Part shown: positions 1 to 7,489 of the stretch, piece after piece | Layout of the letters: every line of letters starts with the position of its first letter | Position numbering within the stretch: the first letter of the stretch is position 1 | Origin: a virus | Lineage: Duplodnaviria; Heunggongvirae; Uroviricota; Caudoviricetes | Virus record (IMG/VR): IMGVR_UViG_2740892232_000008 | Location: 1-8,873 of that record | DNA: 8,873 nucleotides | Reading direction: 5' to 3' (one strand) | Translations under genes and position numbers: made by a program | Notes under the pieces: generated by a model | What the model was told of the DNA's origin: nothing | The model's input: only the letters and a program-made list of their open reading frames with translations | The model's database searches: none

Positions 1-552
1 GCCACTGCCGGAGCCTTCATAAGCAATATCAATGGCCACGGATTCGGTCGGGTTAAACTGCACGCCAGCTCCCCACGCCAGAGACGTGTTGCTGTGGCGA
101 CCGTCATCACTTCCGGTCAGCACGTCGTGCGTTTTCCCCTTGTTGTCAGTTACGCGGAGATAATCCCCGGAGAAAGTCGACACACGGCTGTAAGCCATAC
201 CCGCCATCGCATACGCGCTGAACCATTCATTCACGCGCACAGACGGCCCCGCCATCACGCTGAACCAGCGATTACGCACGGAATCCTCATGCCAGCGGGT
301 ATCGCTGTAATGCGTTTTTTGCTCATCTTCAGCGTTGGCATAACTGAATGACGTAATCAGCCCCAGCGTGTCCGTAAACTCATAACGGTATTTCACGTTA
401 ATCCCGTTCAGATTTTCGCTGCCGGGAGCGTTCGTACGGGCATGAAGATACCCTGCGCTCAGTGTGGCCTGCTGCTCAGACGCCCATGCAGGCGCACCGG
501 ATACGGCCAGACAGATGGCTGCGGACAAAATGGCTGCACAAACTTTACGCAT
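1..552 (-). CDS. lom: Lom outer-membrane beta-barrel protein (Ail/Lom/OmpX family); 3' end runs off the window edge (about 184 codons present)
   Basis: Reverse complement of 481-552 translates MRKVCAAILSAAICLAVSGAPAWA (signal peptide), continuing ...TLSAGYLHARTNAPGSENLNGINVKYRYEFTDTLGL...NRWFSVMAGPSVRVNEWFSAYAMAGMAYSRV..., which matches my recollection of phage lambda Lom. ATG is the complement of 550-552, with a GAGAGG Shine-Dalgarno (complement of about 557-563). It lies directly downstream of J on the same strand, as in lambda. Confidence 0.85.
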   Translation of the reverse strand, partial: MRKVCAAILSAAICLAVSGAPAWASEQQATLSAGYLHARTNAPGSENLNGINVKYRYEFTDTLGLITSFSYANAEDEQKTHYSDTRWHEDSVRNRWFSVMAGPSVRVNEWFSAYAMAGMAYSRVSTFSGDYLRVTDNKGKTHDVLTGSDDGRHSNTSLAWGAGVQFNPTESVAIDIAYEGSGSG

Positions 553-573
553 AATTACCTCTCGCTTTTCTGC

Positions 574-600
574 AATAAAAAAGGCGCCATTTCTGGCGCC
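574..600 (-). terminator. Putative rho-independent terminator between J and lom (read on the minus strand)
   Basis: Self-complementary GGCGCC (583-588) and GGCGCC (595-600) with a 6-nt loop, followed on the minus strand by a T-run (complement of the A-run at 574-582). It sits 20 nt downstream of the J stop codon. Confidence 0.45.
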
Positions 601-619
601 CGTATATGGGTTATAAAAT

Positions 620-3008
620 TCAGCTGATACTGATGCCTGCGGTGGCTTTCTTCATCACCACAACCAGCAAATCGCTGATACTTGCTGTGGGATACCAGTC
701 ATTTACCAGCCATGCTGACACCGAAAACTCCAGCGTCATGTGGCCGTGACCAGCTGGCATATCAATAACACCACTGTAAATCAGCGTATTATCCAGCGCG
801 GTACGGTTATAAATTTCAGCACCATTTTTCTTCACTATCAGGCGGCATGAGGAGTAAATATCAGTATGCTCTCTCTCATGTTTAGCACCGCTGAATGCCA
901 CCGCCGGAATAACAATCTGCCGGTCAAACGGCTGATCGTCATAAATCCTGACGGTAATGGTCCCTGATGGCCACCGCTCCGGTGCCCGGGAGTCCCGCGG
1001 GAAAGCCTTACCCACTGTTTTGACAATATCGCCTTCAATCTGGTTGGCTGACAGTTTCCCTTTAATCTGACAGTTCTCATTTATCGTAACGTTGTTGAGC
1101 GTCCCGGCGTTCGCATTCACACTGCCACTGATATCTGCATTTTTAGCGGTCAGCTTTCCGTCCGGTGTCATGGAAAATGCAGGAGGATTACCGCCGCTGG
1201 TAATGGTGGGAGCCGTCAGATATTTCAGGAACACTTCATTCATGAATATCTGATCACCCTGACCAACAAACATCGGTTTTGTGTTGCCATTTGCAGGATT
1301 AATCATCGCAATCCTGTCTGCCGCCAGCAGCACCTGACTCTGCATGCCGTCGGGGGTGTTCTCAATACCGACACCGATACCCGCAATATAAAGGCGTCCG
1401 TCCTGCATCTGCTGCAGCTTCACAGCCCACATGCTGTTCAGATTATTATTTGTATCAACCTGAACCTTCTGTATCTGCTGAATTGCCGCACTCTGGTCTT
1501 CCAGTTTCTTATTGACGGTCTGCGTGATTTCATTGCTGACATCCTTAATGGACGTCCTGATTTCAGCCAGGTCAGGCGCAAGCTGACCGTTATCAATCTG
1601 CGTCCACAGCTCCTGAGCCAGATGGGTTTTCCCTATCTCGCCTTTGAAAAAATCCAGATAGCCGGATGCATCATCACTCGGCTGACCAACAGCCTCCACG
1701 AATGCCGATTTGCCAACGGTGTTCACACTGCGAACGTAAAAATAATAATCATAGCCCGGCCTGATATTGATACTGGCGGCTATCCAGTACAGCCCCGTGC
1801 CAAGGTAGCGGGCTGTGGTTTCAACCTGCCTGATATCGGTAATCCGCTTTTCCGAGAACCAGAACTCAAACTGTACCGTCGGGTCATAAACGGCAAGATG
1901 CGGCGTGGCGGTTATCTGAAAATAGCCCGGCGTCAGCTCAATCCTCGACGGTGCTGCCGGTGCGGCAATCCGGAACGATACCGACGCCGGATCTCCCTGC
2001 TGCCCCCACGCATTTACCGCCCGGACTGTCAGCCTGTAGTTCCCCAGCGCCAGTTGCGTGAAGCGGTATGTGGTTTCCGTCGTCCGGGCCGTGCTGACCA
2101 GCCGCTCACTGCCGTCGTCCGCTGTTACGGTCAGACGGAGCAGGAAGCTCACGCCCTTCACCACCTTCGGTGTGTCCCAGCGCGCCAGCACCTGATATTC
2201 CCCGCTGTCTGCAGTGACTTCTGCGGTCAGGTGCTGCACCGCTGGCGGCGTGACACCGTTCACCGTGCCACTCTGTTCGCCGTCAAAGTGCGCCCCGTTA
2301 TCCACGATGGCCTCTTTTTCCGGCACATGCTGCACGGCGGTGATGGCATACGTACCGTCATCGTTCTCACGGATACTCACACAGCGGAACAGGCGCTGGC
2401 GCAGCGTCGGCAGCTTCAGCCCCCACACGCTGTATTCGGCAACGCCGTCAGGAACACGGCTCACTTTCACCTTAAGTCCGTCGGTGACGGACTGAACCTC
2501 CACGCTGACCGGATTACCACTTCCGTCAACCAGGCTTATCAGCGTGGTACCGGAGGATGGCAGCGTGATTTCACGGTCGAGCGTCAGCGTCCGGGTCTGG
2601 CTGTTCACCGCCAGCACGCGACCACCGGTGCTGATACCGGCATAGTCATCATCGCAGATTTCAATGACATCGCCCGGTACATGGCGAAGCCCTTCAGCAC
2701 CCACGCTGAAATCCACGGTCTGCGTCTCCAGCAGTTCCGTTTTAATCAGCCACAGCCCGGCGCGGTGTGCCTGCCCCCGGCTGGTACAGCCAAAGGCATC
2801 CATCTTCGTGACATTACGACCGTAACGGGCAATGGCCTGCGTATCTTCAACAAGCTCTGTCGCCGTCTCCCAGCCGTTGTCCGGGTCAATCCAGTTCACC
2901 TCAACGGCATTATGGCGGTCCTTCAGGGCGCTGAAGCTGTAGCGGAACGGCGCGCCATCATCCGGCATCACCACATTACTGCGGTTATAGGTCCACACCT
3001 TATCCGAC
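620..3008 (-). CDS. J: Tail tip host-specificity protein J (lambda gpJ family), C-terminal ~800 codons; 5' end lost at the N10 gap
   Basis: The 807-aa minus-strand ORF reads through the N-run (XXXX in the translation). Sequence such as ...[39 protein letters not shown]...[63 protein letters not shown]... matches lambda J from about residue 330 onward as I recall it. Stop codon TGA is the complement of 620-622. lom follows immediately, as in lambda. Confidence 0.9.
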
Positions 3009-3018
3009 NNNNNNNNNN
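3009..3018. other. Assembly gap or contig-join spacer (10 N)
   Basis: Run of exactly 10 n. Both flanking genes (J on minus, stf on plus) are 5'-truncated at it and face head-to-head. Confidence 0.95.
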
Positions 3019-5069
3019 AAATGGTGGAAGAAGCGGCACGCAACGCTGAAGCCGCCTCTCAGAGCGCAGCGGCGGCAAAGAAATCCGAAACTGCAGCGGC
3101 ATCATCGAAGAACGCGGCGAAAACCTCAGAAACGAATGCAGCTAACAGCGCACAGGCGGCAGCGACCTCACAGACTGCATCGGCAAACTCCGCGACAGCA
3201 GCCAAAAAATCAGAAACCAACGCGAAAAACAGTGAGACAGCCGCAAAGACGAGCGAAACCAACGCAAAGTCCAGCCAGACGGCAGCGAAAACCAGCGAAA
3301 CGAATGCTAAAGCCAGTGAAACTGCGGCAAAAAACAGCCAGGTTGCAGCAGCCCAAAGCGAGAGCGCGGCAGCCGGTTCTGCGACTTCAGCAGCTGGATC
3401 AGCAACTGCTGCGGCTAACAGCCAGAAAGCTGCGAAGACGAGTGAAACTAACGCAAAGTCCAGCCAGACGGCAGCGAAGACCAGCGAAACGAATGCCAAA
3501 GCCAGTGAAACTGCGGCGAAAAGCAGTCAGGATGCAGCGGCCCAAAGCGAGAGTGCCGCAGCCAGTTCTGCAAGCGCGGCGGCTGCTTCTGCCACTGCAT
3601 CAGCTAACAGTCAAAAAGCAGCAAAAACCAGTGAAACCAACGCAAAGGTGAGCGAAACAGCGGCTGCGAACTCAGCGAAAGCATCGGCAGCAAGCCAGAC
3701 GGCAGCTAAAGCAAGCGAAGATGCAGCCAGAGAGTACGCAAGCCAGGCTGCGGAGCCGTATAAATATGTCTTACAGCCGCTGCCTGATGTGTGGATACCA
3801 TTTAACGATTCGCTGGATATGATTACGGGCTTTTCGCCATCATATAAAAAAATTGTTATTGGTGACGATGAAATAACGATGCCTGGCGACAAGATTGTTA
3901 AGTTTAAACGTGCATCGAAAGCAACCTATATTAACAAATCTGGTGTGCTGACAGAGGCTGCCATTGACGAGCCACGATTTGAACGTGATGGCCTGCTTAT
4001 TGAGGGGCAAAGAACAAACTACATGCTCAATTCGGAAAGCCCTGCCAGTTGGGGGCGATCGTCAAATATGGATGTGCCCGAAACAGGGACGGATAATTTT
4101 GGTTTTACCTATGGAAAGTTTGTCTGCAACGATTCTCTGATTGGGCAAACCTCAGCCATTAATATGGCATCAATTGCTGCAACAAAGTCAGTTGATGTCT
4201 CAGGCGATAATAAACACGTGACAACCTCATGTCGTTTTAAAACAGAACTGCAGGTAAGGTTGCGTATCCGGTTTGATAAATATGACGGTAGCGCAACAAC
4301 TTTTCTTGGTGATGCGTATATTGATACACAAACGCTTGAAATTAATATGACAGGCGGTGCTGCCTCAAGGATTACAGCGAGAGTCAGAAAGGACGAAGCT
4401 ACCGGATGGATTTTTGCAGAGGCAACAATTCAGGCAATTGATGGGGAGTTAAAAATAGGCTCTCAGATACAGTATTCTCCTAAGCAGAGCGGGGCAACCG
4501 TATCTGGTGACTATATTTATCTGGCCACCCCACAAGTAGAAGATGGGCCTTGTGTATCATCTTTTATTATATCAGGAGCGACGGCGGCGACCCGCGCAAG
4601 CGATATAGTTACAGTTCCAATTAAGAATAATCTTTATAATCTTCCTTTTACGGTTCTTTGTGAGGTACATAAGAACTGGTATAAAACGCCAAATGCAGCG
4701 CCACGTGTTTTTGATACCGGCGGTCATCAAACCGGAGCGGCTATTATTCTTGGCTTCGGTCGTTCAACAGATTACGACGGATTTCCTTATTGCGATATTG
4801 GAGGAGCTAACAGACGGGTAAACGAAAACGCATCGCTTGAAAAAATGGTTATGGGGATGCGTGTAAAGTCAGAGCAGTCTACGTGCTCAGTAAGTAACGG
4901 GCATATATCCAGCGAAACAAAAACCACATGGTCCTGTATTCAGAACACCGCAATTATCCGTATTGGAGGCCAGACTACAGCCGGGTTACGTCATTTATTT
5001 GGTCATGTCAGGAATTTCAGAATATGGCACAAGGCATTGACTGATGCTCAGGTGGGGGAGTCAATCTAA
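3019..5069 (+). CDS. stf: Side tail fibre protein (lambda Stf-like repeat shaft plus a distinct distal domain); 5' end lost at the gap
   Basis: The frame is open right up to the N-run, so the ATG at 3021 is internal. LMVEEAARNA...AAKKSETAAASS...AAKTSETNAK repeats resemble the lambda Stf region around MVEEVARNAS...AAKTSETNA as I recall it. The distal ~430 aa are non-repetitive and end ...IRIGGQTTAGLRHLFGHVRNFRIWHKALTDAQVGESI. Stop TAA at 5067-5069. Confidence 0.85.
3261..3638 (+). repeat. Two full 189-bp (63-codon) in-frame tandem repeat units inside stf, with degenerate partial copies on both sides (about 3070-3700)
   Basis: The string aacgcaaagtccagccagacggcagcgaa starts at 3261 and again at 3450 (offset 189). 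The units encode NAKSSQTAAKTSETNAKASETAAK(N/S)SQ(V/D)AAAQSESAAA...ANSQKAAKTSET with only a few substitutions. Confidence 0.85.
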
Positions 5070-5350
5070 TGAAAGATTTAACACTCAAATTTGAAGACAG
5101 GGCCGACTTTTCGGCCTTTATGGATAGCACTGGCTATTATGATGACGAGTCGATGCAGGATGATATTCTTATCGACGTGATAGGTAACGTGTACAAAGAA
5201 ACCGGAGAACTGACTGAAGATGGCGAACCGGTATGTGTTAAGGAAGACGGATATTTTGTAAACGTGCGCATCATTAATGATTCGCAAATATCGTCATTAT
5301 TCGATGAATACGTGGTTGCTGTTGAGCATCAACTTCGTGGCTGGATGTGA
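5069..5350 (+). CDS. Small acidic cytoplasmic protein (93 aa), translationally coupled to stf; function unknown, candidate fibre-tip assembly partner
   Basis: ATG at 5069 overlaps the stf stop (TAATG) and follows a GGGGAG Shine-Dalgarno. The product is Asp/Glu-rich. A paralog sits at the equivalent position after the second fibre-tip copy (7202-7480), sharing DGEP and EGYFVN(V/I)R motifs. Confidence 0.6.
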   Translation: MKDLTLKFEDRADFSAFMDSTGYYDDESMQDDILIDVIGNVYKETGELTEDGEPVCVKEDGYFVNVRIINDSQISSLFDEYVVAVEHQLRGWM

Positions 5351-5359
5351 GGAAGAAAA

Positions 5360-6400
5360 ATGGCTACATCGACAGTAATTCCTGATGACATCAAAACGCT
5401 AAAATCCGACGTTAGCAAATTAAAAAACGATCAAGGAAGCTACGCAACAAAATTATATGTAGACAGCAAAGATGAAATCGTTGGTGACTGGTCTGCTTCA
5501 TGGTATCAGCAGGTATTGCCAACTAGCGGAGCTATATTTGGGAGAAAACTCCGCTCAACTCACAGGACGGCAGGTGTTGAGGATGCGTATTGCGAACTAT
5601 ACCTCAAAAAATGGATAGACAGTCCAGGTAACGCAATGGCGCGCCTTAACCTGAACGATAACGGGACAAACATTTGCTGGGACTTTACCAACCTTTATGG
5701 CGGTACGATGATTTTTCCCGGTGACAGCGGATACCTCAAAATGGGTAACTGCCTTATGTCATACAGCAAGCGTGGAAGTAACGCGCTTATTAAATTTGAT
5801 TACACCGACACATTACAGATCAAATATGCCAATCATGGGTCAACCATGACATTAAACACACAGGGAACCGCTTATGCTGGTGTTACTGCTCAATTGTGGG
5901 GCAACTCCAGCCGTCCTGTTGTTTATGAAGTCGGTGTTGATGGTGGCGCTTATATGTTCTATGCGCAGAAAAATACCGATAACACCTATATGTTAAGCGT
6001 TAATGGTGCATGTCATGCCACCGCATTTAACCAGCATTCCGACCGGGATCTGAAAGACAACATTCAGGTGATCGATAATGCAACCGACCGCATCCGTAAA
6101 ATGAACGGCTATACATACACGCTTAAAGAAAACGGTATGCCCTATGCTGGTGTCATTGCACAGGAAGCTCTGGAAGCAATCCCAGAAGTTGTAGGTTCCG
6201 CAATGAAATATCAGGACGGTGCGAGCGGATCGGAAGGTGAAGAAGGTGAACGTTATTACACAGTAGATTATTCTGGTGTTACTGGCTTGCTTGTTCAGGT
6301 AGCCAGAGAGTCAGACGACAGAATAACAGCACTGGAAGAAGAAAACGCAGAATTAAGACAAAGATTATCTGCAATTGAGGCGGCGCTTGCGTCTAAATAA
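5360..6400 (+). CDS. Short tail-fibre or tail-spike-like protein with a C-terminal intramolecular chaperone (peptidase S74-type) autoprocessing domain
   Basis: AGGAAG Shine-Dalgarno 9 nt after the upstream stop. The C-terminal ~120 aa read HS-DRDLKDNIQVID...GVIAQEALEAIPEVV...YTVDYSGVTGLLVQVARE...ITALEEENAELRQRL, matching the SD(R)xLKxNI / IAQE..E..PE.V / VDYS...LL / coiled-coil pattern of endosialidase and T5 pb1-type chaperone domains. Stop TAA at 6398-6400. Confidence 0.75.
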   Translation: MATSTVIPDDIKTLKSDVSKLKNDQGSYATKLYVDSKDEIVGDWSASWYQQVLPTSGAIFGRKLRSTHRTAGVEDAYCELYLKKWIDSPGNAMARLNLNDNGTNICWDFTNLYGGTMIFPGDSGYLKMGNCLMSYSKRGSNALIKFDYTDTLQIKYANHGSTMTLNTQGTAYAGVTAQLWGNSSRPVVYEVGVDGGAYMFYAQKNTDNTYMLSVNGACHATAFNQHSDRDLKDNIQVIDNATDRIRKMNGYTYTLKENGMPYAGVIAQEALEAIPEVVGSAMKYQDGASGSEGEEGERYYTVDYSGVTGLLVQVARESDDRITALEEENAELRQRLSAIEAALASK

Positions 6401-6406
6401 TATTAA

Positions 6407-6429
6407 GGGGCCGAGCGCCCCGTTTTATT
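6407..6429 (+). terminator. Putative rho-independent terminator after the S74-domain gene
   Basis: GGGGC (6407-6411), loop CGAGC, GCCCC (6417-6421), followed by GTTTTATT. Confidence 0.5.
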
Positions 6430-6442
6430 GGGTAGGATGAAA

Positions 6443-6736
6443 ATGGATATAACACCTTTCCTTCATGCGCTTTGTGCTGTGGCTGCGCAGCTACTGATTG
6501 GTCTTTTTACCGGGAACTGGGCTTACGGGGCGATAGCCGGTTGTACGTTCTTCATTGCGCGTGAACACACCCAGGCAGAATATCGCTGGATCGAAATGTT
6601 CGGGCATGGCAAGCGAATGAATATGCCGTGGTGGGGCGGTTTTGATACACGTGCATGGGATGTGGCAAGCCTGATGGATTTTGCTGTGCCGGTGGTGGCG
6701 TGTCTGCTGGTCTGGCTGTTGGTTAATCGTGGGTGA
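6443..6736 (+). CDS. Small integral membrane protein (~97 aa, two predicted transmembrane helices); function unknown
   Basis: The ORF track starts at a TTG (6428). I prefer the ATG at 6443, which has an AGGA Shine-Dalgarno and aligns with the start of the paralog at 7490 (MDITP...). Hydrophobic N- and C-terminal segments flank a conserved loop AREHTQAEYRWI...MPWWGGFD...AWDVASLMDF.VPVVAC shared by both copies. Confidence 0.6.
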   Translation: MDITPFLHALCAVAAQLLIGLFTGNWAYGAIAGCTFFIAREHTQAEYRWIEMFGHGKRMNMPWWGGFDTRAWDVASLMDFAVPVVACLLVWLLVNRG

Positions 6737-6746
6737 AAAAAGGTGA

Positions 6747-6875
6747 GCTGTATATGCAACGGAGGAAGAAACCCCGTTGCTGGAAGCCTGGAAAAAGTAT
6801 CGGATGCTGCTGAACCGTGTTGATACATCAACTGCACCTGATATTGAGTGGCCTACGAACCCTGTCAGGGAGTAA
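6747..6875 (+). pseudogene. tfa: 3'-terminal remnant of a tail fibre assembly (tfa) gene with no start codon or N-terminal part
   Basis: The frame opens at 6747 after an in-frame TGA and encodes ...[37 protein letters not shown], the conserved C-terminal signature of lambda, Mu and P2-type Tfa/U chaperones as I recall it. There is no ATG or Shine-Dalgarno in frame upstream. Confidence 0.55.
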
Positions 6876-6879
6876 TCAT

Positions 6880-6889
6880 NNNNNNNNNN
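6880..6889. other. Assembly gap or contig-join spacer (10 N)
   Basis: Run of exactly 10 n. The downstream ORF is open to the gap, so it is 5'-truncated. Confidence 0.95.
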
Positions 6890-6890
6890 A

Positions 6891-7205
6891 TCTTCGGCAG
6901 ATGGGCCAGACGGATTTCCTTATTGCGATATTGGTGGATCAAATAGGCGTGTTAACGAAAACGCATCGTTGAAAAAAATGGTTATGGGGATGCGTGTAAA
7001 GTCAGATCAGTCTACATGTGCAGTAAGTAACGGGCGTATATCCAGCGAAACAAAAACCACATGGGAATATATCCGGAGTACAGCAACCATTCGCATTGGT
7101 GGACAAACTACAGCAGGATTACGCCATTTATTTGGGCATGTGAGGAATTTTCGTCTCTGGCATAAAGAGCTAACAGATGCGCAGCTTGGGGAGGTTGTGG
7201 AGTGA
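6891..7205 (+). CDS. stf: Second, diverged copy of the side-tail-fibre C-terminal (LamG-like) tip; 5' end lost at the gap
   Basis: In-frame translation from 6891 reads SSADGPDGFPYCDIGGSNRRVNENASLKKMVMGMRVKSDQSTCAVSNGRISSETKTTW...IRIGGQTTAGLRHLFGHVRNFRLWHKELTDAQLGEVVE*. By eye it is roughly 80 percent identical in protein to 4780-5069. The 78-aa ORF at 6969-7205 in the track is only its tail. Confidence 0.75.
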   Translation, partial: SSADGPDGFPYCDIGGSNRRVNENASLKKMVMGMRVKSDQSTCAVSNGRISSETKTTWEYIRSTATIRIGGQTTAGLRHLFGHVRNFRLWHKELTDAQLGEVVE

Positions 7206-7480
7206 GAGATTTCACGTTGCGTTTCAGTGATAAAGCAGATTTCAGGGCATTTCTCAGGAAACTTAACTGGGAAGAGGACGAAGAGCTGCAGAATGCCGTT
7301 CTGGTTGATGAGATTGGTTTTACGTTCAGTGAGTCAGGTGTTTCTGCTGACGGGGAGCCTGAATACACGCGAGACGAAGGGTACTTTGTTAATATTCGTC
7401 TTCTTGACGATGGCTTTGATGAATCCGTGTTCCGTGAGTGGGTGGTTACACCAGAGCGCCCGCTCAGGGAGTGGTTTTAA
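7202..7480 (+). CDS. Small acidic protein (92 aa), paralog of the 5069-5350 product
   Basis: GTG start overlaps the fibre stop (GTGA at 7202-7205) after a GGGGAG Shine-Dalgarno, the same coupling geometry as the first copy. It shares D(R/K)ADF, DGEP and EGYFVN(I/V)R motifs with the first copy. Confidence 0.6.
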   Translation: MRDFTLRFSDKADFRAFLRKLNWEEDEELQNAVLVDEIGFTFSESGVSADGEPEYTRDEGYFVNIRLLDDGFDESVFREWVVTPERPLREWF

Positions 7481-7489
7481 GGGGAGCAG

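Follow-up and report, generated by a model that had tools for sequence, protein, structure and literature searches.

A probable 3′ remnant of a lambda-type tail-fibre assembly gene at the edge of an exchanged tail-fibre tip cassette

The sequence at positions 6756-6875 (plus strand) of the 8,873-nucleotide stretch of viral DNA analysed here, referred to as the window, is with a probability of about 0.87 a non-functional 3′ fragment, or pseudogene remnant, of a lambda-type tail-fibre assembly gene (tfa), left as a by-product of a swap of the tail-fibre tip cassette. It consists of 39 codons homologous to Tfa residues ~155-194 followed by the TAA stop, an assignment obtained from translation, blastn, Pfam, alignment and a match to the Mu U protein. 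The fragment is ordinary and of a kind already known: RefSeq annotation holds it, and the mechanism of exchange has been established experimentally (PMC3945230).

The open frame extends over 42 codons (6747-6875). It is bounded upstream by an in-frame TGA at 6744-6746 and ends with the TAA at 6873-6875, and its last 39 codons (6756-6872) correspond to the C-terminal end of Tfa. The 42-aa frame matched Pfam PF02413 (Caudo_TAP) at profile positions 95-130/131 with 60.9 bits (E 1.9e-16), above the curated cut-off of 22.1 bits for the family, and the PHROG matches of the remnant were to the tail-fibre-assembly families 105, 188 and 136. Residues 142-174 of Mu U, a solved protein of 175 residues (5yvq_B), matched with E 1.6e-4. 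In blastn, window positions 6755-6877 aligned with nucleotides 22437-22559 of lambda tfa at 91% identity (E 3e-41), and intact tfa genes of other E. coli phages were ~97% identical to the remnant DNA. These matches bear out the preliminary description, in which about 40 codons had been taken as the conserved Tfa C-terminus. Alignment with intact tfa genes, the check proposed there, showed that the homology sets in sharply at 6755/6756, with GCAACG at 6756, corresponding to tfa codon 155 of 194. Upstream of 6756 the window sequence in the alignment tracks the lineage of the neighbouring membrane gene and not tfa. The frame had been described as opening 15 nt after the membrane gene; as that gene stops at 6734-6736, the distance is 10 nt, and the tfa homology follows 19-20 nt after it.

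No in-frame ATG or GTG was found in the remnant, and the sole in-frame start is a TTG at 6777 which gives 32 aa. Together with the upstream TGA, this agrees with the earlier statement that the frame lacks an N-terminal domain and a proper start. A GGAGG motif (6761-6765) is located 11 nt before the TTG, so the 32-aa peptide may be translated now and then. A simple scan returned no promoter-like site in 6300-6879. The earlier term 'promoterless' carries little meaning inside a late operon, since late-operon genes are mostly without promoters of their own.

A full-length Tfa domain is ~175-195 aa. When the frame was compared with what is expected of a functional Tfa, it was found to be neither full length nor provided with its own start, intact relatives having ~176-180 codons beyond codon 15. 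It does not lie directly after a cognate fibre gene; the membrane gene precedes it, and stf is two or three genes away. The family profile is matched, though at positions 95-130/131 only, and the conserved residues do not have the pattern of residues under purifying selection. The features of a gene remnant are present, namely partial homology, truncation and disabling changes that segregate among copies. Elsewhere, the same stretch carries the RefSeq/PGAP label pseudo, 'tail fiber assembly protein; incomplete; partial in the middle of a contig; missing N-terminus'.

The window is made up of three contigs, from at least two prophages, joined by N10 spacers at 3009-3018 and 6880-6889. Contig 1 (1-3008, minus strand) holds the C-terminal part of the lambda J gene together with lom. 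Contig 2 (3019-6879, plus strand) holds the stf cassette and is 98.4% identical to phage 2G7b over its whole length, and contig 3 (6890-8873) is the end of a different prophage type. Contig 2 begins ~325 nt into stf (codon ~109), so the true stf start is not the ATG at 3021. The run of 10 N at 6880-6889 is a scaffold or concatenation gap and not sequence, its flanks being non-collinear in all complete genomes. In no complete E. coli genome was the remnant found directly followed by the sequence from 6890 onward. The genomes with high-coverage matches were all non-collinear, the two halves being either order-reversed in one prophage or placed in different prophages, and in strain AF14 the equivalents of contigs 2 and 3 lie 172 kb apart in different prophages. 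Judging from these alignments, the apparent neighbour of the remnant from 6890 on belongs to another prophage, and the adjacency across 6880-6889 is not to be interpreted. The homology with lambda and 2G7b continues past the tfa stop into the last 4 nt of contig 2 (TCAT, 6876-6879, plus strand). With the contig ending 4 nt past the stop codon, the history of this particular prophage is not readable here. The remnant marks a contig end because it is a repeat present in many copies in the genome. The contig breaks coincide with the start of the conserved stf 5′ region and with the tfa 3′ region, as multi-copy repeats predict.

The tip cassette on contig 2 occupies 3019-6436 (plus strand) ahead of the membrane gene, all of it within the stretch 98.4% identical to 2G7b. 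It comprises stf from codon ~109 (ending at 5069), a 93-aa protein of PHROG 1361 (5069-5350) and a 346-aa fibre with an S74 intramolecular-chaperone domain (5360-6400), all on the plus strand. The small membrane-protein gene (6437-6736, plus strand; PHROG 1443) is the constant left neighbour of the remnant, as seen from the ORF list, the upstream identity and the PHROG match. A terminator-like GC hairpin with a T run (6407-6421) separates the S74 fibre gene from the membrane gene, so that the latter and the remnant are placed beyond a possible terminator. The S74 fibre is an optional and variable insert: it is absent from AF14 and ev243, has 234 aa in PhiR49_1 and FDAARGOS_497 and 346 aa here and in 2G7b. 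The stf shaft (3100-3720) has a 21-nt (7-aa) periodic repeat with Ala/Ser/Thr-rich, KTSETNA-like units, and also a 189-nt tandem duplication (3189-3377 and 3378-3566, 82% identical).

Contig 3 carries a member of the same cassette family, with a stf tip 80% identical (4776-5075 against 6909-7208 for the stf C-terminus), a 92-aa protein and a membrane gene 74-81% identical. At 7490-7811 (plus strand) the paralogous membrane gene runs directly into the terminator of a convergent ykgJ-like gene, and a tfa remnant is lacking. The same cassette ending at the ykgJ terminator without a remnant was found in 98 complete genomes as well as in contig 3 of the window. This comparator shows where the cassette proper ends. 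The 92-93-aa protein (5069-5350; 7202-7480) and the ~98-aa membrane protein (6437-6736; 7490-7786) always accompany this stf tip type. The latter has apparently three hydrophobic segments, judged by eye, and no Pfam match was obtained for either protein; possible roles for the two are those of a fibre chaperone and of an envelope or exclusion factor. A protein of the VapA/VapB family, the virulence-associated protein family of Rhodococcus equi, is encoded at 8421-8873 (plus strand; Pfam R_equi_Vir, E 5e-34), and adjoining it at 7801-8235 (minus strand) is a YkgJ-family Cys-cluster protein. The pair directly follows a lambdoid prophage tail-fibre cassette and is kept in about 98 complete E. coli genomes, e.g. 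CE10; the two proteins look like prophage cargo.

The junction zone (6744-6755, plus strand) consists of the in-frame TGA at 6744-6746 and then GCTGTATAT, as delimited by alignments with lambda, PhiR26_1 and contig 3 of the window. The cassette lineages of contigs 2 and 3 diverge a few bases before the onset of the tfa homology, which places the non-homologous joint within 6745-6755. The whole junction (membrane gene, 19-nt spacer and tfa fragment) was recovered at 97-98.6% identity in the complete phages 2G7b, PhiR49_1 and PhiR49_2, and at 87% identity to the window in ev243. It was present in 1,035 of the 5,426 complete E. coli genomes, two of which (H68 and H69) are 100% identical to the window over 240 nt, and in at least 84 IMG/VR contigs. 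A shared breakpoint in related prophages, which the preliminary description had proposed to look for, is thus present in phages, viral contigs and bacterial genomes alike. Upstream of the junction, nearly all copies retain 91-100% identity to the membrane-gene side. One viral contig (L034, minus strand, about position 7023) has an IS element that ends exactly at the cassette/remnant junction and replaces the membrane gene; it was considered as a second upstream context and rejected, the IS element having been inserted at the junction. Phage Ayreon was likewise rejected as a case of the same junction. Its tfa was truncated independently, at a point ~26 nt further upstream, and the fragment comes straight after a different stf. 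Among the matches listed from viral contigs, tfa 3′ ends have at least five distinct left breakpoints.

The extent of the exchanged segment was mapped from pairs of related genomes. PhiR26_1 has the order J-lom-stf-tfa(intact)-ybcY, and PhiR49_1 the order J-lom-stf′-93 aa-fibre-membrane-remnant-ybcY. The two are 95.8% identical in the left flank (up to stf codon ~118) and 99.5% identical in the right flank (from tfa codon 155, i.e. window position 6756), and they differ only between these two points. The earlier proposal that a stf-tfa tip had been replaced by the present cassette is upheld by this comparison. A literature search found no published paper on the PhiR26/PhiR49 phage series. The same boundaries were obtained with lambda and 2G7b, where the right-hand homology comprises the last 120 nt of tfa and ~50 nt downstream. 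Conserved flanks around alternative inserts in near-identical genomes are therefore seen in both pairs, PhiR26_1/PhiR49_1 and 2G7b/lambda. Within the ~50 nt downstream, outside the window, a hairpin follows the tfa stop (2G7b, L003 6152-6186; lambda, L004 3673-3709) with a fold z of -3.5. Between lambda and 2G7b both arms of its stem carry changes, and by eye the pairing is kept. The conserved block seems to end with the hairpin, which may act as a terminator separating the late operon from cargo genes in convergent orientation. A hairpin-like sequence opens many of the downstream contexts of the remnant.

The second property of a mosaic boundary, a single junction combined with different downstream DNA and hybrid alleles, was also seen. 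One clustering placed the identical left junction ahead of 12 downstream clusters, not counting the window copy, which runs into the gap; a second method gave 9. At least 5 of these contexts also occur behind intact tfa, with matching downstream DNA and C-terminal tail allele; PTNPVRE, TAQDIEWPALP, PVIPEV and other tail alleles are common to remnants and local intact tfa. A single joint found in many backgrounds with local tail alleles is as expected of crossovers inside a ~120-nt patch. Among the matches listed, conserved tfa 3′ ends were orphaned in 84 of 152 cases and 5′ ends in 3 of 109 (Fisher p 5e-22, the copies being non-independent). The asymmetry is predicted by replacement entering from the stf side and does not require selection. 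Phage lambda is known to pick up Rac and Qin DNA through homologous crossovers in stf and tfa, one third of the right-hand events falling in a region of tfa with 95% identity (PMC3945230).

To follow the fate of the peptide, tfa 3′ ends from viral contigs were sorted, among the matches listed, into 113 intact copies and 77 remnants with the exact junction, with the A of ATEEE as residue 1. The proportions and p-values serve as indications only, the copies being phylogenetically non-independent and the IMG/VR counts being among the matches listed. Remnants and intact genes could not be told apart by a tally of synonymous and non-synonymous variants. The tally was uninformative because most of the diversity among remnants has been imported from intact alleles by recombination, and it was replaced by a count at residues invariant in intact genes. 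L9, W12, V17, W32 and P33 are invariant in the 113 intact copies, and the 77 junction remnants carry 46 changes at these five residues (L9R, W12R, W12L, W12*, V17M, W32R, P33L). At a wider set of core residues, any change was present in 37/77 remnants against 13/113 intact copies (Fisher p 3e-8, for copies that are not independent). The window copy itself carries V17M (ATG at 6804-6806), and elsewhere among the remnants the frame is shifted, stopped early or cut again at about codon 22. On these comparisons the remnant peptide is decaying and not under selection.

Four other explanations were weighed against the cassette swap. That an intact tfa was cut by mis-assembly or a scaffold gap is brought to mind by the construction of the window, three contigs joined by N10, and by the place of the remnant at a contig end, where a repeat of ~125 nt is typical of a de Bruijn graph break. 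The truncation is, however, on the 5′ side and inside the contig, in sequence that is 100% identical over 240 nt to the closed genomes H68 and H69, while the gap touches only what lies past the stop codon. An assembly artefact is refuted by the presence of the junction in complete phage genomes and closed E. coli genomes and is extremely improbable; assembly error had been named in the preliminary description as a reason to doubt the truncation, which is real. Equally hard to credit is a tail-fibre switch, in the form of an invertible segment (as in Mu G, P1 C and e14 P) or a shufflon-like array, in which 6890-7786 would be the other tip. Two paralogous tip cassettes do occur in one window, with stf C-termini 80% and membrane genes 74-81% identical, but 3019-8873 contains no inverted repeats of at least 20 nt, and the cassettes are on the same strand and on different contigs, 172 kb apart in different prophages of AF14. 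No recombinase, and no invertase-like ORF of the Gin/Cin/Pin type, was seen in the ORF list or in the Pfam scan of ten window proteins, the remaining small ORFs being outside that scan. The invertible-segment reading was rejected for the lack of inverted repeats and for same-strand tips on different contigs. In situ deletion of the 5′ part of a resident tfa, without any module exchange, has precedents such as tfaD of the K-12 prophage DLP12, fused to a terminase fragment, and independent truncations of this kind do exist. It would not account for a junction identical to the base in more than 1,000 genomes with at least 9 downstream contexts, nor for PhiR26_1 and PhiR49_1, which share both flanks and differ by a whole module; moreover, the upstream stf tip type occurs elsewhere without tfa. 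Such local decay is very unlikely here.

An unlikely explanation, though less remote than these three, is that the fragment has been kept for a function: as the 3′ end of the late tail operon together with the hairpin (terminator or stabiliser), as a recombination 'linker', or as the source of the 32-aa peptide from the TTG at 6777. The far more frequent orphaning of tfa 3′ ends than of 5′ ends could be read in this way, as could the retention of the 3′ end at all of at least 5 different left breakpoints, the strong structure of the hairpin after the stop (z -3.5) with hairpin-like starts in many downstream contexts, and the GGAGG 11 nt before the TTG. Replacement of stf-tfa from the left gives the same asymmetry without selection, however, and the remnant is dispensable: prophages of the contig 3 type are without it, some copies have been recut at codon ~22, and in L034 an IS lies at the junction. 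The peptide is interrupted by stops and frameshifts and altered by radical changes, and the hairpin lies outside both the remnant and the window. A functional RNA was rejected, as the window contains no Rfam family and the fold of the remnant RNA is no better than that of shuffled sequences (z -1.08).

The swap of the tip cassette, as the preferred reading, may have begun with the joining of a cassette without its own tfa into a lambda-like stf-tfa phage. The incoming cassette would have brought the distal part of stf, the 93-aa protein, the optional S74-type fibre and the small membrane protein. On the left, the join would have been a homologous crossover in the shared N-terminal region of stf; on the right, the cassette would have been joined to the interior of tfa without homology, at about codon 152-155. 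The preliminary description had placed the recombination inside the conserved tfa 3′ end. Such recombination explains the later spread, but it cannot have truncated the gene, since a homologous crossover in a conserved end does not shorten it; the truncating joint is thus a separate, non-homologous event. By genome comparison, this single old joint has since been inherited and has spread with the cassette. Because the remnant is nearly identical to the intact tfa of other prophages, it acts passively as a homology arm, and the surviving ~120 nt of tfa, with the downstream hairpin in related genomes, would have served as the right-hand arm. Crossovers in the remnant, together with left-hand crossovers in stf, J or lom, could carry the cassette into new prophage backgrounds and next to new downstream cargo. 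The account of the spread draws on genome comparison, with the order of events reconstructed from present-day sequences.

The closest described relatives of the remnant are the tfaD and tfaX pseudogenes flanking ybcY in the cryptic prophage DLP12 of K-12, which are also N-terminally truncated tfa genes with a conserved 3′ end. The K-12 region runs tfa partial, ybcY methyltransferase (minus strand), second tfa partial, appY, ompT. Behind the remnant in 2G7b, PhiR49_1 and ev243 the right-hand context is this same stretch, starting at the tfa end, passing ybcY and the second remnant and reaching ompT; that of AF14 matches K-12 as far as the second remnant. Over the 3′ 124 nt, K-12 and the window agree at 96% identity (H92). 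Each has its own left breakpoint: tfaD has ~146 codons and a terminase fragment, tfaX starts near codon 136, and the window has 39 codons joined to the membrane-gene cassette. A further tfa 3′ remnant, oriented like the first, was observed after a minus-strand ybcY-like methyltransferase at L001 8906-9079, L003 6919-7217 and L195 4491-4658, so that ybcY has a direct tfa fragment on either side, the arrangement of tfaD/ybcY/tfaX in K-12. Such a double bracket may reflect successive insertions of cassettes or cargo via the same homology.

Among intact genes, lambda tfa (orf-194), Mu U and P2 G, all with Caudo_TAP, are homologous to the remnant over their last ~36 residues, including the EWP motif. 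Compared with these, the window copy lacks the first ~155 codons, the start codon and an adjacent cognate fibre tip, and its conserved residues are mutating. The mosaicism between lambdoid phages and defective prophages described by De Paepe et al. (2014, PMC3945230) involves the same stf-tfa region and crossovers in short, highly similar stretches. Those were experimental crossovers of lambda with Rac and Qin, whereas here the events are deduced by comparing natural genomes, and an orphan fragment takes the place of a whole gene as homology arm. The invertible segments Mu G, P1 C and e14 P likewise exchange stf C-terminal and tfa modules and thereby change host range, but they do so by Gin, Cin or Pin inversion at inverted crossover sites between opposed alternative gene sets, none of which were found here.

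A stronger proposal, which we consider doubtful, is that the last ~120 nt of tfa and the hairpin are a portable right-hand homology arm, common to most lambdoid E. coli prophages and preferentially retained. If so, the arm would be maintained as it lets tip cassettes on the left and cargo on the right (ybcY, sitABCD, effectors) shuffle between co-resident prophages. Among the matches listed, more than half of the sampled tfa 3′ copies are orphan fragments. The small ORF-like frame is explained by the cassette swap and is not to be annotated as a gene. Current understanding is unchanged by the remnant. It provides a clean natural example of the swapping of tail-fibre tips, and hence of host range, among lambdoid prophages, in which one old illegitimate joint would have made the cassette-plus-remnant unit, and homologous crossovers in a 120-nt patch would have carried this unit into about a fifth of sequenced E. 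coli genomes and many downstream contexts.
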